The notes beneath the pieces are model-generated. The model worked only from the letters and a program-made list of their open reading frames with translations, searched no databases and was not told the origin of the DNA. Made by a program: the position numbers and the translations under genes. Of a stretch of DNA of 64,000 bases, positions 52,341 through 53,982 are shown piece after piece; the stretch's first letter is position 1, and the number at the start of each line of letters is the position of its first letter. This stretch comes from Octopus vulgaris. Its lineage: Eukaryota. The DNA lies in contig OX597822.1 of NCBI GenBank assembly GCA_951406725.2, forward strand, positions 110,112,001-110,176,000. Direction: 5' to 3'.

Positions 52341-53352
52341 AAGACATTGATAAAAATTAAAGTTGGAAGAGGACCCCCATGGATAGAACCTGAGTGGGTA
52401 ACAGTGGCCATTTTTGACTCGAAGCTGCAGAAAGGAAGCCCAGAGATTCAGCTGGTAAGCAAAACCGAATGCGGGAACTTCTGGGGTATGGCATTGAAAT
52501 AATCGGATCCATAATCCCAGAATATTATAAGGAAGTGCCCGAAGCGATAGAGATGCTGACAGGAGAGAGGCTGAAAATAATTATTACAGGAAGGCCACCA
52601 AGGTGTTACAGGTGCGGACTAAGAGGGCAGAAAATAAAAAAAATTGTGGTAAATCAGCTAAGGAGGTAACAAGAGATATACAAGAAGAAATAATGGAAGA
52701 ACAAAGGGAAAGAGAACTGGCAGCAAAAGAAAAACAGGCAGAAAACAGAAAGACTAGAAGAGACAAAAAGCAGAAAGCATGAAAGAAAGAAGTAAGCGAT
52801 AACAGCAAAAACAAAAAGGTGAAAGAGTATGGAAGAAGGAATGCAACAAGAAGCAGAAAACGAAGAAGAACTAATAACAGAGATATCAGAAGGGGAGGAG
52901 GAGGTGCAAAGCGACAAGGAAATCGCGGAAAAGAGCCAGGAGGCGTATGACAAAGGTGTACAGAAGAAAGGTGGGGAATTGCAGTCGGATGGAGATACAG
53001 GCAAGCAAGAATGCGAAGAAATACAGACAGACGAATTACAGTGGAGAGGAATACTAGAACAACAAGGAAATGGAATATGAAAGAAACATCGAGGGAAATA
53101 AACACTATGAAGAAAAACAAAACAGATAGGATGAAAAAATGGTGAGTATGATAAATTTGTGGAGAAACAAAAGAGAAAAAAAAGGACATGAACATTGTAA
53201 ATTATGTTAAACAAAAAGGAAATAATGAAAAAAGAACTGATGGATGGACAAGTATTAAAAGTTGTGAAAAAGAGAAAAAAGTTTAATTTTCTGTGGTAAA
53301 AGGACACATATGAACGGTTAAATGAAAGGAAAGGTCACAGTTTCGCATTGTA
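52341..53352 (+). pseudogene. Second gag/ORF1-like zinc-knuckle pseudogene, 5' cut by the TIR element, no ORF2
   Basis: KIKVGRGPPWIEPEWVTVAIF and ITGRPPRCYRCGLRGQ...C parallel the motifs of 669-1989. E/K-rich tail. Confidence 0.65.
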
Positions 53353-53622
53353 GCGAAACTAGAGGTAGTTGTAAAGTCAATTGTAAAGTCTAATTGTTAA
53401 GTTAATTTTAAAGTTTAATTGTATGTTTAATCATAAAGTCTAATTGTAAAGGTATTCACAGTTCATCTCGCAGCGGGAGTGAGGTGGCCGTCTCATTTGC
53501 TTCATATTTATGCTCATTTCATTTATCATTTTTCATTGGTCTTCATGTCCCCGCATGTCAGTTGTATGTCCCTTCTATATATCAAGCCTCGTGCCTATAA
53601 TAAAGAAATAACCGGTGATTGT

Positions 53623-53667
53623 CACACGCTGATGACGGGTCAATACCCAGAAACTCGAGTCCGTGTG
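53623..53667 (+). ncRNA. Type I hammerhead ribozyme motif
   Basis: CACACG-CTGATGA-C-GGGT[CAAT]ACCC-A-GAAA-CTCGAG-TC-CGTGTG: perfect 6-bp stem I, palindromic stem III, GUC site at 53659-53661. Confidence 0.85.
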
Positions 53668-53982
53668 TATCATACAGGTTGAAGATGGGAAGGATGGCTT
53701 CCCTTGGAAAATACTGATAGGCACAGAATGTGTGTCAATAGCCAGCTGGAGGAGGTGTCCTCCTGGGACTACAAGCTACAGTAGCATCCACATTTAAGTG
53801 GCAAATATACTTCACGATGTCGTGCAGTTACTGTTTATACCTGGGTCAGAGATTTATTATTGCTGATATATATATATATATATATATATATATATATATA
53901 TATATATATATATATATATATATATATATATATATATATATATATATATATATATATATATATATATATATATATATATATA

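Follow-up and report, generated by a model that had tools for sequence, protein, structure and literature searches.

Within the 64,000-nucleotide stretch of Octopus vulgaris DNA analysed here (the window), the relic of a zinc-knuckle protein gene is followed on the same strand by a hammerhead ribozyme, and the question is whether the two belong to one retroelement. An earlier reading, made from the sequence alone, took them for a single non-autonomous element with a Gag-like protein and a ribozyme-bearing terminal repeat, copied by a Penelope reverse transcriptase (RT) in trans. Comparison with genomic relatives leads us to a different reading, which we hold to be very probable: the ORF belongs to a decayed HAL1-like passenger of a target-specific LINE of the Tx1 type, inserted in trans into a hammerhead repeat. 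The segment 52341-53609 is what remains, truncated at its 5' end and frameshifted, of a member of a retroposon family whose 1.5-1.9 kb elements have a LINE-type ORF1 protein as their sole product. From 53610 to 53864 follows a piece of another repeat, a type I hammerhead unit of ~350 bp classed as a non-LTR retrozyme.

Features of the window copy

52002..52340, no strand assigned: high-copy foldback (MITE-like) repeat, unrelated, adjoining the ORF relic
52341..53130 (end approximate), + strand: ORF1 relic of the ORF1-only element (tblastn of P0001 residues 143-373; translations; P0001 fold)
53131..53609, + strand: 3' UTR of the element (TRF array; family end motif; off-target copies stop at 53609)
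53610..53624, + strand: target-site piece, downstream copy AACCGGTGATTGTCA (duplicated upon insertion in relatives)
53610..53864, + strand: hammerhead repeat family A, positions ~1-267 of ~350 (genome candidates; tandem units; empty copies)
53623..53667, + strand: type I hammerhead ribozyme (sequence motif; stem pairs kept across 13 diverged representatives)
53866..53982, no strand assigned: (TA)n microsatellite, the usual retrozyme flank (TRF; 3' ends of related loci)
560..2090 (ends approximate), - strand: sister ORF1-only element, region of ORF 669-1989 (identity to P0001; flanks of 12 loci)

Position 52341 had been taken as the element start and proved to be a break point, with relatives continuing for ~500 bp further 5'. 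The MITE-like repeat that adjoins it has kept its right arm and mostly lost its left arm, and the junction is spanned by contigs (52314-52558) in two runs. Other copies of this repeat lie in the window (5021-5184 and 19946-20115) and inside L145, L012 and L046, and it is frequent at the break points of ORF1-only elements (L046, L122, L166, L169, L180). The relic itself lacks ~140 initial codons and retains a second RRM-like domain, a CCHC knuckle from 52604 and a Glu/Lys-rich tail; frame 52418-52669 translates as ...GRPPRCYRCGLRGQK. With frameshifts and stops that split it over three frames, and with the knuckle His replaced, the ORF is dead. Its identity to P0001, an intact relative, is 49-61%.

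The 3' UTR contains a repeat array at 53369-53451 (TRF period 12, 6.7 copies, 71%, or period 25) and closes at 53609 with the family 3' end GTGCCTATAATAAAGAAAT, including AATAAA at 53599-53604. Full-length relatives have the downstream target piece AACCGGTGATTGTCA in front of their 5' end as well, and empty units have it once; at the window locus its upstream copy is missing. Every feature that the sequence-only reading had recorded here was found again: the hammerhead, the knuckle relic, AATAAA at 53599, the ~13-bp array, (TA)n and the lack of an RT. TATATA is present too, at 53576-53581, one base off the 53577 it was assigned; as a promoter it was rejected, most relatives having TCTGTATTC or TCTTCATTC at that position. 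No RT lies in the span 52341-53982, and the element has neither an RT nor a GIY-YIG ORF. Neither the missing 5' part of the element nor a second hammerhead was found elsewhere within the window. None of the runs with the window stretch was recorded as RNA, and the contigs of four runs are uninformative on RNA ends.

The hammerhead ribozyme and its repeat unit

The hammerhead consists of stem I (CACACG at 53623-28 and CGTGTG at 53662-67), the core CTGATGA (53629-35), stem II (GGGT/ACCC), GAAA at 53650-53 and a palindromic stem III, ACTCGAGT; the GUC places the predicted cleavage at 53661. The motif is unique in the window, and block shuffles (n=200) average 0.0. Among 13 representatives of diverged families, 63 of 65 stem I pairs are kept with changes on both sides, against 43.5 pairs expected from partner shuffling and 0/10000 shuffles reaching 63, a contrast inflated by related rows. 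Stem II keeps 39/39 pairs, and in 9/13 representatives the palindrome of stem III is perfect. In one respect the ribozyme falls short of the 'very clean' motif described: the closing pair of stem II is C-A (common to 8/13 of the representatives compared). Rfam at its gathering score does not call it and finds only a 5S rRNA gene, and the MFE fold of the monomer is not a hammerhead (z -0.32). Cofolding a dimer did not yield the hammerhead structure either; the case rests on the motif and the covariation. A short palindromic stem III is described as a mark of dimer-acting animal type I hammerheads (PMC4209133), and the window ribozyme likely works as a dimer. Elsewhere in the window, an inverted repeat at 42-200 has a hammerhead-core-like string at 173, with unconvincing stem III and spacing.

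The repeat unit around the ribozyme is abundant, with 4250 first-look candidates in the 2.8 Gb genome. Many genome matches start at 53610-53615 with different sequence upstream, and L004 has tandem units of 351 bp each. In seven exact empty sites the upstream half, target piece and core run uninterrupted, and six of them reach the usual unit end in (TA)n. There are at least nine unit families; A-type units give no or merely short blastn matches to B/C/D-type units, and family G gives none. These empty sites, together with the target-site duplications described below, establish the unit as an independent repeat interrupted by the element, and not as the terminal repeat of the element that it had been supposed to be.

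The segment 53610-53864 has a predicted type I hammerhead within a short, non-coding, dispersed or tandem unit, a trait of non-LTR retrozymes. The empty and tandem pattern matches that of animal non-LTR retrozymes (PMC7229834), and retrozymes are thought to derive from Penelope pseudo-LTRs, as put forward in bioRxiv 10.64898/2026.07.22.740005. The likeness to the described animal retrozymes and Penelope pLTR hammerheads covers the type I fold, the short palindromic stem III, a unit of 170-400 nt, monomer or tandem units, inverted 5' copies and (TA)n flanks (PMC7229834, PMC4209133, PMC8557442). Among the differences, the pair closing the octopus stem II is C-A where G-C is usual, and no matching Penelope ORF was found for the octopus unit. 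The retrozyme description covers 53610-53864 only; the octopus unit additionally hosts a LINE derivative.

The junction as a recurrent insertion site

The 18-nt end motif of the element has 105 exact matches in the genome, against 0 for the reversed control. Downstream of 100 distinct sites examined, 65 continue into the hammerhead unit, nine into the target piece and a further element, and 24 into other DNA; two are not elements. The tally by script was 62/8/26/4, and four rows were reassigned by eye (L134, L162 and L180 to the hammerhead class, one L164 end to the stacked-element class). In the 65 cases the element abuts the unit with offset and orientation nearly fixed. Co-occurrence at fixed spacing had been proposed as a check; the spacing is near-fixed, and the junction is a recurrent feature of the family. 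Unit and element each occur alone as well, so that independent occurrence is real and uniqueness of the junction is not.

Among distinct loci that show the 5' end of the window lineage, 14/14 have an upstream unit half or a stacked element before it (by eye), and elements stack head to tail at the hammerhead site. A second hammerhead repeat upstream of full copies had been proposed as a check; some full copies do have unit sequence on both sides, as halves of one unit or of a tandem array. For 55 ends that run into a hammerhead unit and have 3.3 kb of sequence upstream, inspection by eye gave 30 with an upstream half or stacked neighbour, 19 that are 5'-truncated without an upstream half, three in L121/L125 and three that are complex; L131 alone is 5'-truncated with the upstream half and duplication in place. 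Duplications were measured at 24 of the 30, and a clear target-site duplication of 12-25 bp is present in 21/24, the remaining three giving no clear one. In 17 of these 21 loci its end lies between -4 and +3 relative to the first base of the core; in three loci (families E and F) it ends 8-17 bases earlier, and one locus has a damaged core. The shared flanks of L146-L149 mark them as segmental duplicates rather than separate insertions.

Target choice is not tied to one unit family, since elements 83-97% identical occupy units without a mutual blastn match in 5/9 chosen pairs. Insertion also occurs away from the ribozyme: 10/24 of the sites in other DNA are 5'-truncated copies with their own 14-22 bp duplication, which abuts the break, and no ribozyme. 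These off-target sites resemble the on-target start in 4.6/8 matches, against 3.1 at random, which is a hint only, the starts having been set by eye. The off-target copies, together with sister families that have other targets, show the ORF1-only element moving without a hammerhead. Since relatives landed at the same ribozyme site many separate times, the ribozyme is a landing site and not a part of the element. The same criteria served to show an independent insertion of SINEU-3 into Mariner-N4_AMi, as described in PMC4494074.

The ORF1-only element and its protein

Full-length elements measure 1.5-1.9 kb between duplications and contain one ORF, without RT or ORF2. The intact relative P0001 has 388 aa and a weak zf-CCHC match; its model (pLDDT 61) suggests two ferredoxin-like/RRM domains and a knuckle. 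In fold comparisons of this model, tandem-RRM chains lead the Foldseek matches with a best E of 1.8e-3, a further comparison gives Z up to 7.8, each match being weak, and the comparison with a ZCCHC3-type cluster gives 0.89. The part of the model compared, residues 64-229, matches RRM/ferredoxin-like folds. P0001 aligns with the ORF1s of autonomous LINEs of the same genome at 19-26% identity (E 1e-6 to 1e-19), and the ORF1s nearest to the octopus ORF1-only element are those of octopus LINEs. Judged from model and alignment, the protein is of the LINE ORF1 type, with a predicted RRM-RRM-CCHC order, and probably not the Gag-like protein it had been taken for.

The earlier view that the element is non-autonomous stands, given full copies of 1.5-1.9 kb with a single ORF and no RT, and the codon comparisons indicate that this sole ORF is kept by purifying selection. 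Between ORF1-only families, dN/dS is 0.06-0.27 in 7/8 computable pairs and 0.72 in one near-identical pair; two further pairs are saturated. In one young family the same 457-aa ORF occurs without change on three chromosomes, and there are tandem arrays as well. Very young ORF1-only families (L374-L380, L385 and L386; for example G000:C4:70.04 Mb and C4:27.05 Mb) have intact frames of 457-498 aa, 1.8-kb tandem arrays, poly(A) tails in some members and one shared upstream flank without a hammerhead.

Target-site duplication, 5' truncation and an A-rich 3' end in the ORF1-only relatives are traits of the L1/Tx1 group; the window copy has lost its 5' end, and its own duplication is thus unreadable. 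In a tree of 15/20 rows (four short rows and one duplicate excluded), ORF1-only and autonomous ORF1s fall into separate deep clades, so that the passengers are old lineages with no direct parent found. The design is like that of HAL1 (half-L1), described as a non-autonomous LINE derivative encoding ORF1p alone (PMC5753468). However, HAL1 as described there derives from mammalian L1, while the octopus elements form several deep lineages with site-specific insertion. The octopus element works like HAL1 and is not HAL1.

Autonomous LINEs as probable partners

Autonomous LINEs with an ORF1 and an intact ORF2 of 1134-1166 aa are present in the genome, some in 5.3-5.7 kb tandem arrays. The ORF2 contains Exo_endo_phos, RVT_1 and zf-RVT domains, and its best PDB match is human L1 ORF2p (E 5e-66), nearer to L1 than to R2. 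Their tail, TAATAAAGA, is similar to that of the ORF1-only elements. At L173, ORF1-only elements and a decayed LINE (ORF1, AP endonuclease) lie between the same target pieces, and the first bases of this LINE match the 5' end of the window lineage; it was the query that retrieved the intact ORF2s. Mixed arrays of autonomous and ORF1-only elements occur at L173 and L388.

Several of these LINEs occupy hammerhead units. Units of family G are the site of one young family (L217-219, L222-224, L228), which has a 17-bp duplication. A-type units are occupied, again with duplications, by L229 and L231, and in family A the end of L235 has the same offset as the window copy. Other targets are used by three further autonomous families (L220/221/236, L230, L232). 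The young family across L217-L219 and L222-L228 has an intact 1140-aa ORF2, and the core of its family G hammerhead departs from CTGANGA, being TTGAAAA/TTGACAA. Only decayed copies are seen of the family-A partner (L173/L235 type). A search for a closer autonomous parent of the window lineage found ORF2 in 2/44 loci, both array neighbours. Beside distant ORF2 relatives in metagenome contigs, hammerheads were found at 0/77 loci, which are mostly short and 23-49% identical and thus uninformative.

The matches of the partner ORF2 include no named Tx1 reference; we infer a Tx1 placement from architecture and targeting, the preference for a target sequence being a Tx1-clade trait, and the partner ORF2 probably moves the ORF1-only elements. 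Known Tx1 targets include Tx1D piggyBac (for Tx1), Mariner-N4_AMi (Tx1-Mar), Harbinger (Tx1-9_AMi) and LTR elements (Tx1-8_Crp); Keno, Kibi, Koshi and the SINEU passengers are further target-specific cases in that account (PMC4494074). The octopus LINEs share with the Tx1 clade an AP endonuclease, a fixed place in another repeat, tandem stacking and passengers using the same target (PMC4494074). They differ from the members described in their target, a hammerhead retrozyme entered a few bases before the core in non-aligning unit families, and in their passengers, which encode ORF1, whereas the Tx1 passengers are SINEs (SINEU, PMC4494074).

Proposed mechanism and alternative explanations

In the mechanism that we propose, the element would have entered a pre-existing hammerhead repeat 19 bases upstream of its catalytic core. 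The ~350-bp unit, independent and seen in empty and tandem copies, would provide the target; relatives split such units between duplications of 12-25 bp that mostly end <=4 bases from the core, and the site is shared by autonomous LINEs whose ORF1 is homologous, whose ORF2 combines AP endonuclease and RT, and whose tail is similar. The partner ORF2 would nick the target and prime reverse transcription at the shared tail, and the element's own ORF1p may coat the element RNA in cis. The window copy would later have lost its 5' third and the upstream unit half, likely via the neighbouring MITE. Finally, the Penelope-type machinery behind retrozyme movement may occasionally copy element and ribozyme again, both together. 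The 19 truncated ends without an upstream half are more than simple truncated insertion predicts, and later deletions or insertions can explain them; at the window locus the break abuts a half MITE, which favours later deletion and is compatible with a truncated composite.

The reading first proposed would make ORF and hammerhead unit one element, which the ribozyme would excise and a Penelope RT would copy in trans, with the window copy as a 5'-truncated product of that route. The loci L125 and L121 speak for it, having the element 3' part and the hammerhead in both arms of a Penelope-type layout, in which an inverted copy is joined to a forward, 5'-truncated one with (TA)n at either end; their inverted arm has sequence absent from the forward arm and is thus not a local fold-back, and L024, L009 and L004 resemble them. 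An inverted and a truncated forward copy within (TA)n is the layout described for Penelope insertions (PMC8557442), and ordinary hammerhead units show inverted 5'-truncated copies and (TA)n flanks as well. Truncation without an upstream half, as in the window copy, recurs in 19/55 ends, and an intact GIY-YIG/RT Penelope-like family of 781 aa exists in many copies. Its members (L400, L405 and others) have an intact 781-aa frame and, towards the 3' end, a hammerhead variant of their own; neither this hammerhead nor their tail matches units A-G. As the main route, however, this reading is unlikely: the duplications, the stacking, the target switching and the off-target copies each require a LINE-type insertion step, young intact ORF1-only families exist without a hammerhead, and the break of the window copy adjoins a half MITE. 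A Penelope ORF with units A-G as terminal repeat was found in 0/30 best-candidate loci of one search, its query locus excepted, where the ORF1-only element intervenes, and in 0/30 of a second; the Penelopes found have other hammerheads. The evident partner in trans is an endonuclease-RT LINE at the same site. What survives of the Penelope proposal is an occasional role: the inverted element-ribozyme copies in L121 and L125 suggest that it probably acts now and then, and a Penelope passenger route for element plus ribozyme is on balance favoured at that occasional level.

Full copies with unit sequence on both sides (L054, L223, L231) might instead be read as a tiny LTR-type element with a gag between two hammerhead-bearing LTRs, comparable to plant LTR retrozymes with cargo. 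This is very improbable, as each pair of flanks comes from one unit, or from a tandem array, split into halves that overlap by the 12-25 bp duplication only, the protein aligns with LINE ORF1s and has a predicted RRM-RRM-CCHC order, copies are 5'-truncated, and off-target copies without any unit contradict it. Chance adjacency of two unrelated repeats, which the sequence-only reading had kept as an option and which the abundance of the unit (4250 candidates) might invite, is given practically no weight; it is refuted by the end-motif tally with its near-fixed offset and orientation, the 5'-end flanks and the measured duplications. Insertion of a LINE passenger into a hammerhead repeat is the reading that we retain.

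Precedents and implications

Both ingredients have precedents. Our literature search found no report of hammerhead-targeting LINEs or ORF1-only Tx1 elements, which Repbase/Dfam may name, and none of a targeted radiation of ORF1-only elements or of their probable double mobility. In the passages searched of a 2026 O. vulgaris repeat paper (PMC13282606), L1-Tx1 and Penelope families appear, and the terms 'ribozyme' and 'hammerhead' were not found.

The ribozyme represents a new target class for site-specific LINEs. The arrangement amounts to three-tier parasitism of Penelope, retrozyme and LINE with ORF1-only passengers on top, has young, intact members, and places a HAL1-like design with an ORF1 under purifying selection outside mammals. 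Near-identical passengers in non-aligning hammerhead families make target choice and switching by an AP-endonuclease LINE testable with natural material, and the system lends itself to the question of how animal hammerheads serve or affect elements inserted next to them. A more tentative idea, which we think doubtful at present, is that hammerhead ribozymes as a class have become the speciality of a LINE lineage, which exploits them. If so, the host ribozyme would cut read-through RNA ~50 nt past the element end and leave target-matching sequence for priming; in arrays, cuts at both ends would yield linear or circular unit-length RNA. The insert would then be a passenger of the Penelope RT, and a chimera of ORF1 and ribozyme would be moved by two unrelated retrotransposition machines.

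The sister family and neighbouring repeats

The ORF at 669-1989 had been cited as a homologue suggesting a family. A related ORF1-only family it is (34% identity to P0001 over 146 aa; 48 matches in the genome), and its relatives target a SINE: SINE-head sequence lies at an end in 6/12 loci, and a hammerhead at the end of these sister elements was found in 0/12 loci. The hammerhead is thus not a general part of the ORF1-only design. The targeted SINE is presumably the common tRNA-like octopus SINE. Several of these relatives lie in the SINE head and are bordered, at one end or at both, by a target piece of ~16 bp. A tandem of a 184-bp SINE-like repeat occupies 26124-26734 of the window; its 3' tail resembles that of the ORF1-only element (by eye), which suggests that this repeat also depends on the same LINE group. 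Beside the tandem lies a 5S rRNA gene (26796-26914, - strand; Rfam 106.8 bits).
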